64,000 nt of DNA from an uncultured Spirochaetota bacterium (GCA_963781885.1 CAWAHW010000007.1:480001-544000); one strand, 5' to 3'; counted from the stretch's first letter, positions 1,787-8,217 are shown. Notes: a model not told the origin generated them from the letters alone. Made by a program: numbers and translations.

Positions 1787-2377
1787 TTACTCCTCTCCCG
1801 GAGGGGACGCAAGCGGAGACGGGAAAAAGAACAGGAGCCCCAGATCAAATCCGAGGGTATAGTAGATCGTGTCGGACTGGAGAGAATAGTACAGGTTGAA
1901 GGTGGGTCCCACGCTGAAGGAAACGGAGGGGTTCAGCCTCAGCGCGAGCCCGGCATTGAGCTCGGTCCAGAAGCCGGGAACGGAAGAATCCGAGGTTGAC
2001 TGTCCCGACGACGACGATCCCTGGAAACTGAGCTCCACCGCCGTGGTGTCGCGGAGAAATGGCATGGCGTCCCCGAAGGAAAAATACATGCCTGCCTGGA
2101 AACCGGGAGAGACGTCGAGGTACCAGCTGCCGTTCTGCGTGGCGTTGTTTTGCGTGCTCGAGTAGGTGACCGAAATATACGGGCCTATTTCGAACAGGCG
2201 GCTCGTGAAGAATCCGCCCCAGCCGTACAGGCTGAAGCTGCTGGTCGGCGCGGCGCTGGAGAGGGGTATGCTTGCCCACCCGCCCGTGCCGCCCTGGATG
2301 ATTCCCCCGCCGCTTTCCTGCGCGCCGGCGAGCATCGGGATGGCGAAGATGATGACCGTAAGGGCGAAGCGCTTCAT
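1787..2377 (-). CDS. Secreted protein, probable outer-membrane beta-barrel
   Basis: ATG at 2377 after GAAGGAG; signal peptide MKRFALTVIIFAIPMLAGA; aromatic, alternating beta-strand-like segments ending YTLGFDLGLLFFF. Confidence 0.55.
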   Translation of the reverse strand: MKRFALTVIIFAIPMLAGAQESGGGIIQGGTGGWASIPLSSAAPTSSFSLYGWGGFFTSRLFEIGPYISVTYSSTQNNATQNGSWYLDVSPGFQAGMYFSFGDAMPFLRDTTAVELSFQGSSSSGQSTSDSSVPGFWTELNAGLALRLNPSVSFSVGPTFNLYYSLQSDTIYYTLGFDLGLLFFFPSPLASPPGEE

Positions 2378-2522
2378 AGGCACTCCTTCTCGGACGCGGA
2401 TTCGTCTTTCACTCGTTCGACGGGACGGTGCATCCCGATCGTACATCAACCGCCCGGCTTTCCGCAACACGCGGGGGATGCAACGTGGACGAGACTGTCC
2501 CGGTCATATATGCTCCCCGCTG

Positions 2523-3539
2523 ATGAACGAGGTCCAGATCGTAAGGTTTGGCGGACCCCCGGTTCTGCGGCTCGTGGAACGGCCGTCACCGGCCCTGACG
2601 GCCGGACACGTACGGATCACGGTAAGCGCCGCCGGGGTGAATTTCGCCGACGTGCAGATGCGCATGGGTCTGTATCCCGAGGCTCCCCGTACCCCCTTTG
2701 TGCCCGGCTTCGAGGTTGCCGGCGTCATTTCCGAGGTGGGCCCGGAGGTGACCTCCTTCCGTCGCGGCCAGCGGGTGCTGTCCATGTGCCGCTTCGGCGG
2801 CTATGCCGATGAGATCGTCCTGCCGGCAGCGCACGTGCGGCCCACGCCGCGCAGGCTGTCCGACAAGGAGGCGGCGGCGATTCCCGTCGCATTCGCCTCC
2901 GCGTGGATCGCCCTGATGGACATGGCGCGGATCCGCGAAGGCGACCGCATCCTCATCCCCGGCGCCGCGGGCGGTCTTGGAACGGCCATGGTGCAGATCG
3001 CGGTCAAGGCAGGCGCGCAGGTGGTCGGTCTCGTCGGAAGCAGCGGGAAAAAAGAGCTCGTGCGGTCGCTGGGCGCCGCGGAAGTGCTGACGTATGACGA
3101 GCTTCAGGCGCGGGACGGCGGCTACGGCCGGGATTTTTCCGTCATCGCCGAACCGCGGGGGGCGCGGGCGCTGAAAGACTCCATGCGGCGATTGGCCCCG
3201 GGCGGCCGGGTGGTGAGCTACGGGGTTTCTTCCATAGTGACGGGTTTGCGTCGATCCATTCCGCGTACGCTCCTCTGGCTTCTCCGCACCCCGCTCTTCA
3301 CGAATATCGGCCTGCAAATGGCAAACACGGGGCTCATTGGCCTGAACATGCTGAAGCTTTTCGACACCGAGCTTGGGCAGGACATGCTCATGCGGGCCAT
3401 GGATACGGTGCTGGAAGGATTCGAGACAGGCGCGTATAAGGCAGTCGTCGCCAAGTCCTTTGCCCTTTCAGATGCAGGTGCCGCGCAGGAGTTTCTCCAG
3501 AGCGGAAAAAGCGTCGGCAAGATTGTCTTAGTCTGCTGA
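2523..3539 (+). CDS. MDR-superfamily NADPH:quinone oxidoreductase-like protein (VAT-1-like)
   Basis: AAGVNFADVQMRMGLYP, PFVPGFEVAG, GAAGGLG Rossmann motif, C-terminal GKSVGKIVL. Confidence 0.9.
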   Translation: MNEVQIVRFGGPPVLRLVERPSPALTAGHVRITVSAAGVNFADVQMRMGLYPEAPRTPFVPGFEVAGVISEVGPEVTSFRRGQRVLSMCRFGGYADEIVLPAAHVRPTPRRLSDKEAAAIPVAFASAWIALMDMARIREGDRILIPGAAGGLGTAMVQIAVKAGAQVVGLVGSSGKKELVRSLGAAEVLTYDELQARDGGYGRDFSVIAEPRGARALKDSMRRLAPGGRVVSYGVSSIVTGLRRSIPRTLLWLLRTPLFTNIGLQMANTGLIGLNMLKLFDTELGQDMLMRAMDTVLEGFETGAYKAVVAKSFALSDAGAAQEFLQSGKSVGKIVLVC

Positions 3540-3558
3540 ATTATCTTAAAAATTTTAA

Positions 3559-3586
3559 TTGACAATTAATTTATTTAATATATATT
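3559..3586 (+). promoter_or_regulatory. Sigma70-type promoter of the DUF2089 gene, possibly leaderless
   Basis: TTGACA at 3559-3564, 16 nt spacer, TATATT at 3581-3586, 6 nt before ATG 3593, inside a very AT-rich patch. Confidence 0.65.
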
Positions 3587-3592
3587 AGAGGT

Positions 3593-4048
3593 ATGCCAAG
3601 AAACAGAATCGACGCAAACGTCCGCTGCCCATCATGTAACGGTCAACTATTTCCAAGGGTACTGGTCTGCGATTCGTGTGGGCTCAAGGTCGAAGGGGAG
3701 TTCATCATGAACGAGTTCGGGTCTCTCACTCCCGACGAGCTGCACTTCCTGCGCGTCTTCATCTACTGTGAGGGAAGGATCCGCGACATGGAGGCCGCGC
3801 TCGGCGTGAGCTACCCCACCGTGAAAGGACACTTGGCCACCATCAAGCAGAAGCTCAACCTTGCGCCGCATCCGGGTCGGCCCGCCGCACCTGCCGCAAG
3901 TGATGCCGCGCAGGGAGGCGGGGCAGAGATGAGCGACGAGCAGGTCCTCGACGGGCTGGAATCCGGGCAGGTCAGCTACAAGGATGCGCTCAGCCTTCTG
4001 CGGTCAAGGAAAAAAGGAGAAAAGGCCGATGAGCAGCAAGGCAGCTGA
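3593..4048 (+). CDS. DUF2089-family protein (Zn-ribbon + HTH + SHOCT-like C-terminus)
   Basis: CPSC...CDSC; FLRVFIYCEGRIRDMEAALGVSYPTVKGHL HTH; C-terminal VLDGLESGQVSYKDALSLL. Confidence 0.85.
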   Translation: MPRNRIDANVRCPSCNGQLFPRVLVCDSCGLKVEGEFIMNEFGSLTPDELHFLRVFIYCEGRIRDMEAALGVSYPTVKGHLATIKQKLNLAPHPGRPAAPAASDAAQGGGAEMSDEQVLDGLESGQVSYKDALSLLRSRKKGEKADEQQGS

Positions 4049-5318
4049 CAGGATTCGCGCGATGCAGGAGAAAGGCATCCTCACCCCGGCGCAGGCCGAA
4101 GAGCTCCTGAAGGCGCTGGAGGGAAGCGATGAGGAACCGGGTGCCCCCGCGTCATCGGAGCCGCTCGAGCCGCCACCAGGCGCTTCCGCGCACGCCGACG
4201 CGGAATCGGACAGCAAGTGGGACGACGACGAAGAAAGAGTGCGCGGGCGCGGCCGGCATCGTCGGCAGCGGCCTTTTCTCCCGGACGGCCTCCTGGAGAT
4301 GGACTGGGTGAATGACATGGTGGACGGCATCACCAGCGGGCTCGGCGTCCACGTCCAGGACAAGGTGCGGGGGGCGACAGGCGACGACTGGAGCGAAGGC
4401 TGGGGCGGGCACTGGACGGCGAACGGGCAGAACTCGTCGCGCATCGAGCAGCCCGAAGGGGAGCAGTACGAGTTTCGCGGCAACCGCGTGGTCTTCAGCA
4501 GGCTGACCGGCATGCACCTGGTGCGGTCCAAGGTCAAGGACAACTCGTTCTCCGCCTCCACGTTCAAGGACATCGAGCTCGTGGACAGCACGATGCAGGA
4601 CTGCGCGCTCGCCGGCGCCTCCCTGCACGAGCTGCGGATGGAGCATGCGGAGCTGAAGGACGTGTCCGTGTCGGGCTCAAAGACCAACCGGATCAGCCTT
4701 CAGGATTCCACCACGGTGAAGGGGCTGCGCATTTCAGGGTCCCGGGTCAACGGCATGACCCTGCAGGAAAACTGCAGCATCCACGATACCCGATTCTCCG
4801 GGGCCGTCATCACGGCGCTTACTCTCATCCGGTCGTCGAGGATGAAGGACGTGCGCCTCACCGGCGCGACGGTCAACAGGCTCTCGCTGGAAGGGGCGTC
4901 CATGGACAATGTTCGGGCGCAGGGATCGGTCCTGGAGAGCTCGCACATCACCGATTCCCAGCTTCAGGACACCGACCTTCGCGGCACCCGTTTCCGGGAC
5001 GCCGAGATCACCGCCTCCAAGATCAAGGACTGCCGCTTCGATGCGATCGCCTTTGACGGGCTGAAGATCGCGAGCAGCACGCTGCGCAAGGTGAGCTTTC
5101 GCGACGCCAACTACAAGATGTACAGCAATCTCCGCGCACAGGCGGAGAAGCTTTCGATCATCGACTGCGACCTGGACGAGATTGACTTTTCCGAATGCAC
5201 GATCCGCAACACGACGATCCAGGGCATCAAGGTGCACGGATTGCGGATTCGCGGGGCGGACCTGTCTGGAATGACGATTGCCCGTGTCGAGGACCTGGAG
5301 GCCCTTGGACGAAGATAG
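4029..5318 (+). CDS. Pentapeptide-repeat (beta-helix) protein with N-terminal SHOCT-like helix
   Basis: N-terminal DRIRAMQEKGILTPAQAEELLKALE; acidic linker; long 5/10-residue periodic repeats (FSASTFKDI ELVDSTMQDC ALAGASLHEL ... DLRGTRFRDA EITASKIKDC). Start overlaps the DUF2089 gene. Confidence 0.8.
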   Translation: MSSKAADRIRAMQEKGILTPAQAEELLKALEGSDEEPGAPASSEPLEPPPGASAHADAESDSKWDDDEERVRGRGRHRRQRPFLPDGLLEMDWVNDMVDGITSGLGVHVQDKVRGATGDDWSEGWGGHWTANGQNSSRIEQPEGEQYEFRGNRVVFSRLTGMHLVRSKVKDNSFSASTFKDIELVDSTMQDCALAGASLHELRMEHAELKDVSVSGSKTNRISLQDSTTVKGLRISGSRVNGMTLQENCSIHDTRFSGAVITALTLIRSSRMKDVRLTGATVNRLSLEGASMDNVRAQGSVLESSHITDSQLQDTDLRGTRFRDAEITASKIKDCRFDAIAFDGLKIASSTLRKVSFRDANYKMYSNLRAQAEKLSIIDCDLDEIDFSECTIRNTTIQGIKVHGLRIRGADLSGMTIARVEDLEALGRR

Positions 5319-5338
5319 AAAATACAGACCCAGAAAGA

Positions 5339-5369
5339 AGCCGCGGTGAATGCTCGCCGCGGTTTTTTT
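5339..5369 (+). terminator. Rho-independent terminator
   Basis: CCGCGGTGA-atgc-TCGCCGCGG hairpin followed by T7. Confidence 0.85.
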
Positions 5370-5429
5370 ATTGCCATTTTTAGAGGAATCAATTTATTTA
5401 ATATTGTATTAAAAAATTTAAGATTTATA

Positions 5430-5458
5430 TTGACAATTATTAAATAACTTGCTATAGT
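5430..5458 (+). promoter_or_regulatory. Sigma70 promoter of the ABC exporter operon
   Basis: TTGACA at 5430-5435, 17 nt spacer, TATAGT at 5453-5458, within an AT-rich stretch of about 100 bp. Confidence 0.8.
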
Positions 5459-5501
5459 CAATTTATAATTTATGCCATGGAATGGCAAAGGAGACGATGC
5501 T

Positions 5502-6515
5502 ATGGAGATTATTTCCATTTCGGATCTTCGAAAAAGCTTCAAAGGCCGACGCGGAAAGGGACACCCGGTGCGCGTGGAAGCCGTGAAGGGTATCGATCTT
5601 TCGGTACGGGAAGGGGAGATATTCGGCTTCCTCGGGCCGAACGGCGCAGGGAAAAGCACGACCCTGCGCATCCTCTCCACGCTTCTGCCTGCGGACAGCG
5701 GGAAGGCGGAGATCGCCGGCTGCGATATACGCACGGAACCCCGGAAGGTGCGCCAGCTCATCGGCTACGTGAGCCAGTCAGGCGGCACGGACCCCGATAT
5801 GACGGGGAGGGAGAACATCCTCCTGCAGGCGGGGCTGTACGGGCTCAGCCCGGAAGCGGCGCGACGGCGCGTGGAAGAGCTCACGAAGGCGCTGGAGCTC
5901 GGTGAGTTCGTCGACAGGTTCGCCAAGACCTATTCGGGCGGCCAGAAGCGGAAGCTCGACATCGCGGTGGGCATGGTGCACAGCCCGAAGATCCTTTTCC
6001 TCGACGAGCCGACGACGGGACTGGACCCCCTCAGCAGGGCGCAGCTCTGGGGCCAGATCCGGCTGCTGCGGAGCCTGGGGACAACGGTGTTCCTCACCAC
6101 GCACTACATGGAGGAGGCCGACGCCCTCTGCGACCGGATCGCCATCATGGACCACGGCACGATCGTCGCCCGGGGCACCCCGAGCGAGCTCAAGGCCGGG
6201 GTTCACGGCGACGTCGTGTCGCTCTCCGTGAACCATGTCGAGAATGCGCCGGAGCTCGCCGTCGAGCTGCTGCGGGCGCAGGAGCTCGTGCGGGAGATTT
6301 CGAGCGAAGGGGCCCACCTGAAGCTGATCGTCGCGCATGGAGGCGAGGCACTGCCGGTCATCATGAGGCTCCTGGAGGGGCGGGGCATCGGGGTCGCGGA
6401 GATCGCCGTGGCGCGCCCGTCGCTGGATGATGTCTTTCTTCGCGCCACCGGCCATTCCCTGAAGGAAGAGACGCCGGTGCACGCCGCGGCACAGACCGCA
6501 TATCGCAAGGAGTAG
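5502..6515 (+). CDS. ABC exporter ATP-binding subunit (DrrA family)
   Basis: GPNGAGKST, YSGGQ, LFLDEPT, TTHYMEEA, C-terminal RPSLDDVFL; RBS AAGGAG. Confidence 0.95.
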   Translation: MEIISISDLRKSFKGRRGKGHPVRVEAVKGIDLSVREGEIFGFLGPNGAGKSTTLRILSTLLPADSGKAEIAGCDIRTEPRKVRQLIGYVSQSGGTDPDMTGRENILLQAGLYGLSPEAARRRVEELTKALELGEFVDRFAKTYSGGQKRKLDIAVGMVHSPKILFLDEPTTGLDPLSRAQLWGQIRLLRSLGTTVFLTTHYMEEADALCDRIAIMDHGTIVARGTPSELKAGVHGDVVSLSVNHVENAPELAVELLRAQELVREISSEGAHLKLIVAHGGEALPVIMRLLEGRGIGVAEIAVARPSLDDVFLRATGHSLKEETPVHAAAQTAYRKE

Positions 6516-6518
6516 GAA

Positions 6519-7279
6519 ATGAGCTTTTTCAGGGATCTTCGGCTTCTGTTCGTTCGCTCGGTCAAAGGCAGCCTGCGCAATCCGGTGTGGCTCTTCATCG
6601 GCTTCTTCCAGCCCATCGTCTATCTCCTTCTCTTCGCGCCGCTGCTCACCAATCTCACCGGCATCCCGGGTTTCCCCCGCGGAGGGGCCTACACGGTCTT
6701 CACGCCGGGCCTGCTGGTGATGCTCGCCCTTTTCGGAACGGCATACGCGGGCTTCGGCCTGGTGGAGCATATCCGCGAGGGGTTCCTCGAACGGCTGCTG
6801 GTCACCCCGCGCGCCGGCTCTCCATCCTGCTCGCCTACGTGCTGCGCGACATCGTGGTGCTGCTCGTGCAGTCGGGCATCGTCGTTCTGCTGGCCCTGCC
6901 CCTGGGTCTCGTGGTGGACGGCCGCGGCCTTGTCCTGACATTCGCCATGATGGTGCTGACGGGCATGTTCACCGCCTCCTTCTCCTACGGCCTCGCCATG
7001 GTGCTGAAGCGCGAAGATGCAATGGCATCCGTGATCAACATCCTTGCGACTCCCCTCATGCTTCTGTCGGGCATCACGCTGCCGCTCACGCTCGCGCCGA
7101 AGATCATCCGCTCCATTGCGTCGGTCAATCCATTCGCCTACGAGGTCACGGCGGCGCGTTCCCTTTTCGTTGGGGACTTCGGCGACTCCGCGATCCTTGT
7201 CGGCTTCCTCCTTCTGGGAGTGCTGGCCGTCATTGCCTTCTGGTGGGCAATCCGTTCTTTCCGCAAAGCGGCGGCCTGA
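6519..7279 (+). CDS. ABC-2 permease (DrrB family), frameshift near 6808
   Basis: Two overlapping hydrophobic ORFs (GFLERLLVTP and RRLSILLAYVLRD...NPFAYEV) join if one base is added in ACCCCGCGCG. Confidence 0.85.
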
Positions 7280-7309
7280 CGGACGAAGCGACAAGACGGA
7301 ATGTTCGAC

Positions 7310-7340
7310 AAACGGGCCCGCACGCGGGCCCGTTTTTTTT
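7310..7340 (+). terminator. Rho-independent terminator
   Basis: CGGGCCCG-cacg-CGGGCCCG followed by T8. Confidence 0.9.
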
Positions 7341-7389
7341 CTCGCTGTTGCCGCGACGGGTGTCTCATGGTACCATCGGCACCACACAT

Positions 7390-8217
7390 ATGGGCCGGCG
7401 TGTGCTTCCCGTCCTTTCTGTCGCCCTCCTGGTGTTCTTCGTCTATGAGAGCGCCGTCCGCATCCTGCTCGCGCCATTTGTCGCGCTCCCTGACCTGACC
7501 GGGGGCATCGCGGGTCAGACGATCGTCCTCGTGCTCTTCAGCGTCCTTCATTCCATCCACGCCCTGGGCTTTCGGCGCACGCTTATCTTCTTTCTTGCCA
7601 CGGCGATCGTTTCCTGGACGTTCGAGCAGGTGGGCGTGTCGACGGGCATCGTCTATGGCGCCTATCACTATACCGGCGTGCTGGGCGTGAAGCTCGGGCA
7701 CGTCCCCGTCCTCATCCCGCTTGCCTGGTACATGATGATCTACCCCAGCTGGTGCCTTGCGCTCTGCATCGCCGCACGGGGTCCGGTGTCCGAGCCGGGC
7801 TCGCCGCGGGCGGAGAGGCAGGGGACGGGTTTCCTGGGGCCGGTCTTTCTCGCCGCAATGGTCATGACCGCGTGGGACCTCGTGGTGGATCCGCTTCTCT
7901 CAGGGCCCTCCGTCAGGGCATGGGTCTGGGAAAAGGGCGGCCCCTATTTCGGCATCCCGCTGCACAACTATGCCGGCTGGATGGTCACGACATTCGTGGT
8001 CTACTTCCTCTACCGCCTGTACGACCGCGGCACCCGGGGACGCACGGGCGGCCCGCAAAGCGGCTTCATGGCGGCGCTCCCCCTCGTGGCTTACGCCTCC
8101 GTCATGCTCTCCAACTCCATTGCCAATGACCGAAAGGAGATGGTCGTGATCGGTCTTTTCGCCATGGGATTGCCCCTGTGCGCGGCTCTCGTCGGATTCC
8201 GCCGCGCCCACGGTTGA
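7390..8217 (+). CDS. Carotenoid biosynthesis protein family (CruF/DUF422-like) membrane protein
   Basis: EQVGVSTGIVYGAYHY, GVKLGHVPVLIPLAW, WDLVVDP, W.W..GPYFGIPLHNYAGW motifs. Confidence 0.85.
   Translation: MGRRVLPVLSVALLVFFVYESAVRILLAPFVALPDLTGGIAGQTIVLVLFSVLHSIHALGFRRTLIFFLATAIVSWTFEQVGVSTGIVYGAYHYTGVLGVKLGHVPVLIPLAWYMMIYPSWCLALCIAARGPVSEPGSPRAERQGTGFLGPVFLAAMVMTAWDLVVDPLLSGPSVRAWVWEKGGPYFGIPLHNYAGWMVTTFVVYFLYRLYDRGTRGRTGGPQSGFMAALPLVAYASVMLSNSIANDRKEMVVIGLFAMGLPLCAALVGFRRAHG

Follow-up and report, generated by a model that had tools for sequence, protein, structure and literature searches.

Does a single operator connect a small uncharacterised regulator with its own operon and with a neighbouring exporter? 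The question is raised by a stretch of 64,000 nucleotides (nt) from an uncultured Spirochaetota bacterium (G000:C7:480001-544000), which is referred to below as the window; the host genome, G000, comprises 4.64 Mb with a guanine-plus-cytosine (GC) content of 63%. Near the start of the window, a gene for a DUF2089 protein is followed by a gene for a pentapeptide-repeat protein (the partner) and by an ATP-binding cassette (ABC) exporter of the DrrAB type. An earlier note on this DNA had proposed that the DUF2089 protein binds a box common to the promoters of both transcription units. The comparative analysis described here points to a tandem pair of palindromic dyads, 35 base pairs (bp) in length, located at the promoter of the DUF2089 operon (P1) and at the promoter of the exporter (P2). 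The best explanation of the locus as a whole would be a local circuit in which the DUF2089 protein controls its own operon and exporters through these dyads, and a probability of approximately 0.7 is assigned to this reading, which is drawn from sequence comparison.

Palindromic dyads at two promoters

The two AT-rich islands described in the earlier note are evident in the GC profile, in which the GC fraction falls to 0.29-0.33 at 3500-3649 and to 0.22-0.23 at 5350-5499 in surroundings of about 0.6-0.7. The decamer on which the proposed box was based, TTATTTAATA, is located at 3571-3580 (+), 5394-5403 (+) and 5438-5447 (-), and its first two copies extend to a longer shared word, as had been stated. 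With up to one mismatch, five matches were found compared with 0.05 expected, and none of 100 shuffles reached five. A scan of the whole 4.64-Mb genome found three copies of the decamer, all at these sites, and only two copies of the 14-mer AATTTATTTAATAT, both at this locus. The word TTGACAATTA, which is present once in each island (3559-3568 and 5430-5439), gave two exact matches and one with a single mismatch compared with 0.41 expected, and 3 of 100 shuffles reached three. AT-only words recur easily; therefore, the genome's own AT-rich DNA was taken as the control. Among 57 genome islands with a GC content of no more than 20% over 40 nt, words of at least 14 letters are common to 4 of 1596 island pairs, and the adjacent P1/P2 pair is one of these four. 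The sharing of words between the two islands is confirmed and is moderately unlikely to have arisen by chance. Many of the 57 islands also contain TTGACA beside palindromes (for example, C1:180569, C2:115586, C4:207037 and C4:346853), and the set represents a ready candidate list of operator-promoters for other regulators.

When the upstream regions of orthologs were lined up, the conserved unit was found to be the palindrome ATTAA-N5-TTAAT, arranged in tandem pairs 20 bp apart; the full element spans 35 bp, [ATTAA-N5-TTAAT]-N5-[ATTAA-N5-TTAAT]. In the ortholog alignment, the dyad lies directly 3´ of TTGACA in P1 and recurs upstream of the -35 hexamer in P2. An operator-like box shared by both promoters was thus correctly recognised in the earlier note, but its unit is the tandem palindromic dyad rather than the decamer. 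The first two decamer copies fall within dyads. The third, inverted copy is kept as a 10-mer only in the closest relative (L032) and does not represent a conserved box, and the second dyad of P2 (5408-5422) was missing from the original list.

The element is placed at different positions relative to the -35 hexamer in the two promoters (Table 1). At P1, the dyads bracket the -35 hexamer and fill the spacer; the middle N5 is the TGACA of the -35 hexamer, and the dyad centres are located at about -41 and -21. Palindromic sites that flank or overlap the -35 hexamer and spacer of the regulator's own promoter are expected of the operator of an autoregulated repressor. The ATG is located 6 nt after the -10 hexamer, a distance that is kept in most orthologs and from which a leaderless mRNA is expected. 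At P2, the dyad pair ends 7 nt before the -35 hexamer, with centres at about -70 and -50. Of the 16 promoters examined, 13 follow this layout (dyad-N5-dyad-7 nt-TTGACA) and keep the 7-nt gap; they comprise all 10 home-locus P2 promoters and all 3 relocated promoters of the DrrA/sigma type. The L044-L048 clade, L035 and L042 have no recognisable TTGACA at P2 and were left out of this set; a dyad is nevertheless present at P2 in L044, L045, L046 and L048. A weak third site, ATTAAATAACTTGCT (5439-5453), is located in the P2 spacer, where it overlaps the inverted decamer copy. This site has 1-2 mismatches in the window, L032, L038, L041 and G018 and 3-6 mismatches in the other 8 of the 13 layout-fitting promoters.

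Two departures from the P2 region of the window were also observed. In the L045-L048 clade, an inverted repeat (AAGCAGNC ... GNCTGCTT) and an A run are present between the dyads and the Shine-Dalgarno sequence of the ABC gene. In L042 (G023:C1), the ABC ATPase gene lacks its first ~205 codons, the P2 core is absent, and only a remnant of the dyad region follows the partner gene.

A DUF2089 ortholog was found in 19 of the 20 other genomes of the genus, and 18 fetched loci together with the window form a set of 19. The order DUF2089, partner, ABC ATPase and permease is observed in 16 of the 19, window counted; among the remaining loci, one contig ends too early, and the ABC genes are not adjacent in G019 and G018. 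When up to one mismatch is tolerated, all loci except L047 and L048 (17 of 19) have the dyad at P1, and 15 have it in the interval between the partner gene and its downstream neighbour. The four exceptions for this interval are L035 and L047, whose gaps are short, and L039 and L049, where an ABC gene is lacking at this place. In loci with two dyad matches, the spacing is exactly 20 bp. The conservation of the motif at orthologous DUF2089 loci and the linkage of the ABC genes to DUF2089 are both borne out by these counts, and the element has moved along with relocated ABC genes, as described below. Single dyads with up to one mismatch number 12 in G000, of which 4 are the two pairs at this locus. 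A scan for the double dyad, in which up to 3 mismatches were allowed in 20 specified positions, returned 35 forward matches from 21 genomes of the genus compared with 7 for a reversed-pattern control. P1 or P2 of the DUF2089 locus accounts for 28 of the 35, and 16 genomes have the double dyad at P1. G008 (85% complete) yielded no DUF2089 gene, no orthologous ABC gene (best match 53% identity) and no double dyad.

These data bear on the idea that the two islands are alike by descent, as a duplicated promoter cassette whose boxes have no present function. In its favour, the islands are 1.8 kb apart and have TTGACAATTA and a 14-mer in common. However, the boxes differ in their position relative to the -35 hexamer, each of the two positions is conserved in its own right among species in which partner identity is as low as 38-50%, and the letters between the boxes are not conserved, which makes this origin extremely improbable.

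Sites beyond the home locus and the candidate regulon

Seven of the 35 double-dyad matches are located off-locus, and five of these precede a relocated DrrAB operon, an extracytoplasmic function (ECF) sigma/major facilitator superfamily (MFS) pair or MacB-type operons. In G019, which like G018 has no ABC genes next to its partner gene, the double dyad on C18 is located directly upstream of the orthologous DrrAB operon (ATPase 74% identity) with the same 7-nt gap to TTGACA. In G009, whose home locus offers only 54 nt and no P2, the double dyad on C1 (L050) precedes an ECF sigma remnant and then an EmrB/QacA-like MFS frame. The double dyads of G013:C257, G002:C49 and G014:C11 each adjoin a MacB-type ABC ATPase and an FtsX permease (Pfam check for L053 only). 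The three MacB-type promoters have another register and do not follow the P2 layout; in L053, a dyad is located in the spacer. The matches at G018:C12 and G014:C13 have 3 mismatches and no related gene nearby, and both were treated as chance. In G018, the orthologous ABC operon is located 8.6 kb downstream, where a dyad 7 nt before TTGACA is accompanied by a 1-mismatch dyad in the spacer. In addition, an ECF sigma gene (169-188 residues) is inserted between P2 and the ABC genes in L033 (2292-2855), L034, L036 and L037; it is apparently leaderless, has no adjacent anti-sigma gene and is absent from the window. Taken from these positions, the likely regulon of the dyads in the genus consists of efflux pumps (DrrAB, MacB and MFS) and an ECF sigma factor.

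A pattern scan with one genome per species extended the comparison to 69 DUF2089 loci, 48 of which are non-spirochaete. The DUF2089 proteins of the latter are 55-64% identical in Fibrobacterota and 40-47% identical in Gammaproteobacteria (Pseudomonadales) and also occur in Bdellovibrio, Bacteriovoracaceae and a metagenome-assembled genome (MAG) of Phycisphaerae. A pentapeptide partner is adjacent in 44 of the 48 loci, and two of the four exceptions are truncated at contig ends. In Gammaproteobacteria, the partner gene precedes DUF2089; in Fibrobacterota, Bdellovibrio and Phycisphaerae, it follows DUF2089. Among the loci scanned, no DrrA ortholog was adjacent to the pair outside spirochaetes, and no conserved third gene was observed beside it in six other-phylum loci scanned with Pfam. 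The DUF2089-pentapeptide pair is found across phyla; its linkage to the ABC genes, in contrast, is restricted to a single spirochaete genus.

The dyads are also present in other phyla. Four Fibrobacterota loci (L076, L077, L079 and L121) contain the same double dyad, which is perfect in L077; the element surrounds a -35-like TTGCAT, and a leaderless GTG start follows 6 nt after TATATT. In Gammaproteobacteria, where the operon is partner-first, pairs of ATTRA-N5-TYAAT spaced 20-21 bp apart are located ~60-90 nt before the partner start. This relaxed dyad was counted in 43 loci (5 of the 48 were dropped for cut contigs, N runs or a missing partner), with 200-nt promoter zones amounting to 8.6 kb set against the remaining 319 kb. 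Perfect dyads number 24 in the zones and 0 elsewhere. With up to one mismatch, 42 were found in the zones (25 of 43 loci) compared with 26 elsewhere, 13 of which belong to one AT-rich locus. Block shuffles (40 nt) of the zones gave a mean of 3.9 and a maximum of 10, so that the motif is enriched over shuffled AT-rich sequence, as the earlier proposal entailed.

The possibility that only strong sigma-70 promoters with AT-rich UP elements are present, and that the shared words reflect promoter constraint and chance with no dedicated regulator, can be judged from these counts. Near-consensus -35/-10 hexamers are present in both islands, 14-mers are shared by other pairs of AT-rich islands in the genome, and TTGACAATTA alone is weakly significant. 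Promoter constraint would not, however, conserve only the half-site positions while the N5 letters and flanks vary, nor keep the 20-bp phasing exact. The single dyad (up to one mismatch) was found in none of the other 55 AT-rich islands of G000, perfect dyads are confined to the promoter zones in the other phyla, and the element follows its relocated targets; the promoter-only explanation is therefore very unlikely.

Variation in the regulator provides a candidate specificity determinant. The recognition helix begins with SYPTVK in every group with these dyads. Eight Fibrobacteria loci have a different palindrome, ATATTTTTAAC-N2-GTTAAAATAT, and SYPTIR is found in exactly these eight loci and in two Bdellovibrionales loci. 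The change of the helix appears to track the change of the palindrome, although the link is suggestive only because few independent lineages are involved.

The dyads co-travel with the gene pair, overlie its promoter, follow exporters that have moved and change with the recognition helix, and according to Pfam no protein of the module other than DUF2089 has a DNA-binding domain. Together, these features make the DUF2089 protein the highly probable binder. A real operator bound by another factor, whether a nucleoid-associated or global AT-binding protein, the linked ECF sigma factor or the pentapeptide protein, is unlikely. The partner does co-travel with the dyads as faithfully as DUF2089 and a sigma gene is present at P2 in four relatives, but the window and most loci lack this gene, the promoters are of the sigma-70 type, and a global protein would not give a regulon of two sites per genome. 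The change of recognition helix and palindrome together is also not expected of a different binder.

Three observations concern the surroundings of the pair in other genomes. L074, a contig assigned to a Methanomassiliicoccales archaeon MAG, begins with a spirochaete-type DUF2089 gene (78% identity) and is probably mis-binned. In a Bdellovibrio locus, a divergent gene for a fused ABC exporter (L085, 8-3688, minus strand) is located beside the DUF2089 pair, and in a gammaproteobacterial locus an AcrB-type resistance-nodulation-division gene (L092, 33-1685, plus strand) is located upstream of it. Efflux genes may be a recurring neighbour outside spirochaetes.

The regulator, its partner and the exporter

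The DUF2089 protein consists of an N-terminal Zn ribbon, a helix-turn-helix (HTH) domain and a helical tail. The HTH domain scores 60.7 bits against PF09862 (gathering score 33.4) over residues 45-90, and the Zn ribbon scores 32.4 bits against PF22747 (27.6). Cys12, Cys15, Cys26 and Cys29 are invariant in 19 orthologs, and residues 1-88 are almost invariant in the genus, with the HTH (45-88) nearly so. In the structure model, a three-helix LuxR/sigma-4-like HTH (47-89; predicted local distance difference test (pLDDT) score about 80) is connected by a disordered linker to a two-helix tail (115-145), whose helices span 115-124 and 129-145 with a pLDDT of 72-80. The best fold matches, all of which are weak, are uniformly LuxR/GerE-type regulators and sigma-70 region 4 (VpsT, EL222, VraR, DesR and LiaR), with 45-55 aligned columns and a root-mean-square deviation (rmsd) of 1.5-2.8 Å. 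LuxR/GerE-type regulators bind inverted repeats as dimers. Compared with these regulators, the DUF2089 protein is without a receiver or ligand domain and instead has the Zn ribbon and a SHOCT-like tail. A search by sequence among solved structures gave nothing below E 0.07 for this protein, and NCBIfam has no model for it.

The partner, whose start overlaps the DUF2089 stop by 20 nt in the window reading frames, is 38-81% identical within the genus. It scores 91 bits against PF13599 (cut-off 38) and belongs to the pentapeptide-repeat proteins (PF13599 and PF00805); Pfam identified pentapeptide families only and no Toastrack domain (DUF4097/DUF2154/DUF2807). The model (pLDDT 74.4) comprises a confident two-helix SHOCT-like N-terminus (3-34), a disordered acidic/basic linker, a short helix (92-104) and a solenoid of about residues 147-410, which is formed by 20-residue coils (strand period) with a pLDDT above 90. 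PF22746 (SHOCT-like_DUF2089-C) matches the regulator tail and the partner N-terminus, in both cases below the cut-off, and a gammaproteobacterial partner above it (29.0 bits). Both proteins therefore appear to carry the same kind of helical module, and the claim of SHOCT-like helices in both agrees with these matches and with the two helices in each model.

The fold matches of the solenoid are pentapeptide proteins, including EfsQnr, QnrB1, AlbG and MfpA (E 8e-5 to 5e-3), with low TM-scores (0.12-0.44) and an rmsd of 8-12 Å. The partner resembles Qnr, MfpA and AlbG in its right-handed solenoid of 20-residue coils but is about twice as long, carries the SHOCT-like N-terminus and falls far below the NCBIfam cut-offs (42.9 compared with 360 for MfpA; 41.3 compared with 240 for Qnr). 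The DNA-mimic proteins Qnr and MfpA have a strongly acidic, DNA-like surface. In contrast, the solenoid is not acidic, with a net charge of +4 in the window and -2 to +8 in 17 orthologs by a crude count rather than a surface map; together with the low family scores, this argues against a gyrase-protecting DNA mimic. A DNA-mimic anti-repressor role for the solenoid is likewise not supported, as it is not acidic.

This comparison also bears on the view of the locus as a resistance island, with the partner as a gyrase protector like Qnr, MfpA, AlbG or McbG, DrrAB as a pump for the same poison and DUF2089 as no more than the regulator of both. A precedent is provided by McbEFG, which combine protection and export against microcin B17, and the identity of the fold matches, the weak NCBIfam matches to MfpA and Qnr and the fact that all targets are efflux pumps are in line with such an island. 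The distance of the partner from the Qnr and MfpA families in score, fold superposition and charge speaks against it, as do the SHOCT-like module with its long linker and the pairing with DUF2089 in phyla without an adjacent pump. A resistance island is thus an improbable description of the locus.

The exporter is of the DrrAB daunorubicin type in that its ATPase passes TIGR01188 (338.2 bits compared with 312.45) and contains a DrrA1-3_C domain and its permease is an ABC-2 protein recognised by Pfam ABC2_membrane. It differs in that the permease falls below the DrrB cut-off (70.3 compared with 223 for the intact ortholog of L038 against TIGR01247), and control of such exporters by a DUF2089 operator was not found in the main texts of the literature searched. 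An ABC start at 5472, which had been offered as an alternative, was rejected; the ortholog starts are the ATG behind AAGGAG, which corresponds to 5502 in the window. The small hairpin before this Shine-Dalgarno sequence keeps its stem in orthologs with other letters (GCCAAA/TTTGGC in L043, CCCC/GGGG in L045-L048 and CCC/GGG in L044), a pattern suggestive of compensatory change; taken by itself, the hairpin of the window is not significant (z -1.1). The terminator of the DUF2089-partner operon has a 16-bp stem, the 3´ arm of which takes in part of a U run that continues beyond the stem, and its stability was reached by 0 of 200 shuffles. An Rfam scan over 3300-7600 found nothing near any gathering score.

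Table 1. Features of the DUF2089 locus, with positions counted from the first nucleotide of the window.
Feature	Position	Strand	Support or remark
Zinc-type quinone oxidoreductase/alcohol dehydrogenase-like gene	2166-3539		
P1 double dyad: CTTAAAAATTTTAAT (3545-3559), TGACA, ATTAATTTATTTAAT (3565-3579)	3545-3579	.	sequence, genus scans
P1 sigma-70-type promoter: TTGACA (3559-3564)-16-TATATT (3581-3586)	3559-3586	+	consensus 11/12
DUF2089 regulator, 151 residues	3593-4048	+	Pfam, ortholog alignment, structure model
Pentapeptide-repeat partner, 429 residues	4029-5318	+	Pfam, ortholog comparison, structure model
Intrinsic terminator of the DUF2089-partner operon	5334-5369	+	-24.3 kcal/mol, z -6.2
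P2 double dyad: ATCAATTTATTTAAT (5388-5402), ATTGT, ATTAAAAAATTTAAG (5408-5422)	5388-5422	.	sequence, genus scans
P2 promoter: TTGACA-17-TATAGT, TG before -10	5430-5458	+	consensus 11/12
Small hairpin GCCAT-GGA-ATGGC	5474-5493	+	directly 5´ of the Shine-Dalgarno sequence AAGGAG of the ABC gene
DrrA-type ABC ATPase, 337 residues	5502-6515	+	ABC_tran, DrrA1-3_C; TIGR01188
ABC-2 (DrrB-like) permease	6519-7279	+	two frames in the window: 6519-6938 and 6587-7279
Intrinsic terminator of the ABC operon	7310-7335	+	
Carotenoid-synthesis-like membrane protein	from about 7390		Pfam

A proposed local circuit and its relatives

In the proposed circuit, the DUF2089 protein would bind as dimers to two adjacent dyads with centres 20 bp apart; the location of both dyads on the same helix face suggests two dimers. 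At P1, where the dyads cover the -35 hexamer and the spacer, binding would shut the promoter, and autorepression is likely from the placement of the sites. At P2, the dyad pair would act from its fixed position 7 nt upstream of the exporter's -35 hexamer, and in some relatives P2 would drive the ECF sigma gene that precedes the exporter. Repression is somewhat favoured over activation at P2 and might proceed by interference with UP-element contacts or by cooperative occupation of the weak site in the spacer. The co-translated cytoplasmic solenoid partner would sense or scaffold a signal and alter DNA binding by the regulator through helix-helix pairing. This role of the partner is suggested by the translational coupling, the strict co-occurrence, the common SHOCT-like modules and the analogy with DUF2089-Toastrack and HAAS-PadR systems; contact through the SHOCT-like helices in particular, which is proposed by analogy, is tentative, with the odds slightly short of even. 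The efflux-pump targets suggest a toxic compound or envelope stress as the signal.

A broader and rather doubtful extension of the local circuit would regard the pair as a self-contained, cross-phylum, one-operon device, apart from two-component and sigma/anti-sigma systems, in which a solenoid controls a Zn-ribbon LuxR-like repressor through SHOCT-like pairing and efflux pumps and an ECF sigma factor were captured as a regulon in the genus. The DNA code of this putative device would be ATTRA-N5-TYAAT, present twice in a 20-bp phase and read by the SYPTVK recognition helix. Such a device would represent a previously unrecognised efflux or stress switch.

Several observations weigh against the local circuit or its parts. 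The P2 dyads precede a near-consensus core promoter, and sites placed there do not in themselves obstruct RNA polymerase. In G007, P1 is degenerate and P2 is absent, and the relatives compared are not independent. In the other phyla, the motif was relaxed (R/Y) after the gammaproteobacterial sequences had been seen, although the strict motif already matched the same places; 18 of the 43 non-spirochaete loci have no dyad with up to one mismatch, 8 of which are the Fibrobacteria group with the other palindrome; and the closeness of Fibrobacterota to spirochaetes may reflect gene transfer of the whole cassette. PF22746 falls short of its cut-off of 27 bits on both the regulator tail (14.4 bits) and the partner N-terminus (20.9 bits). 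Apart from the HTH and tail, the DUF2089 model is of poor quality (mean pLDDT 60.9), and its fold matches have E values of 0.2-1.3. Finally, the permease of the window is read in two frames, whereas relatives that possess the gene have one uninterrupted frame; because the break, near 6810, lies in a C/G-rich run, a true frameshift and an error of assembly are equally likely.

Compared with the systems described in the available portions of one comparative-genomics study of PSP envelope stress (PMC11237479), the locus exhibits both similarities and discrepancies. The DUF2089 proteins of that study, which combine a Zn ribbon, an HTH and a SHOCT-like region, occur in four-gene contexts with Toastrack proteins and sometimes with a sigma factor, and Lia-like signalling was proposed for them, in which a membrane-proximal signal is passed to transcription. 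The regulator architecture and the cytoplasmic beta-helical SHOCT-like partner are the same here, and a sigma gene is linked in some relatives but not in the window. However, the partner at this locus is a pentapeptide solenoid rather than a Toastrack/DUF4097 protein, no LiaI-LiaF-TM or PspC gene adjoins it in the window, and no operator, regulon, exporter link or experiment is described for the Toastrack contexts in those portions of the study. The same source describes PadR systems with HAAS modules, in which a small autoregulatory DNA-binding protein is combined with a signalling partner; the helical module of this partner is joined to Toastrack or, among Firmicutes, to pentapeptide repeats (PMC11237479). 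These systems differ in having a PadR winged HTH instead of a Zn ribbon with a LuxR-like HTH, and HAAS instead of SHOCT-like helices.

A full-text search of main texts on DUF2089 found no experimentally known function, DNA site or target, and a search on the domain types of the module listed no further relevant work. A gene cluster table for Streptomyces shows a DrrA-type ABC pair in the company of two DUF2089 proteins and one DUF1707 protein (PMC11007384), an enterocin cluster contains a DUF2089 protein, DdC, together with an ABC transporter, for which an immunity role was suggested by the authors (PMC7332713), and a table for Bacteroides thetaiotaomicron merely lists one DUF2089 protein (PMC10434189).

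As judged from the sequence comparisons, the dyads are a real conserved cis-regulatory element with a coherent small regulon, predicted to belong to an uncharacterised regulator-partner pair, and the system appears to be of the kind in which a locally acting, autoregulated HTH regulator operates with a signalling partner. The locus gives a precise prediction that comprises a 35-bp operator, two promoter layouts, a small regulon, a candidate specificity determinant and an obligatory partner. If the local circuit is correct, it would provide a function for two uncharacterised protein families, one of which, DUF2089, is widespread, and it would add the pairing of SHOCT-like helices with a beta-solenoid to the known couplings of signal to transcription. 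It might also explain the presence of DUF2089 genes beside ABC exporters in antibiotic and bacteriocin clusters.

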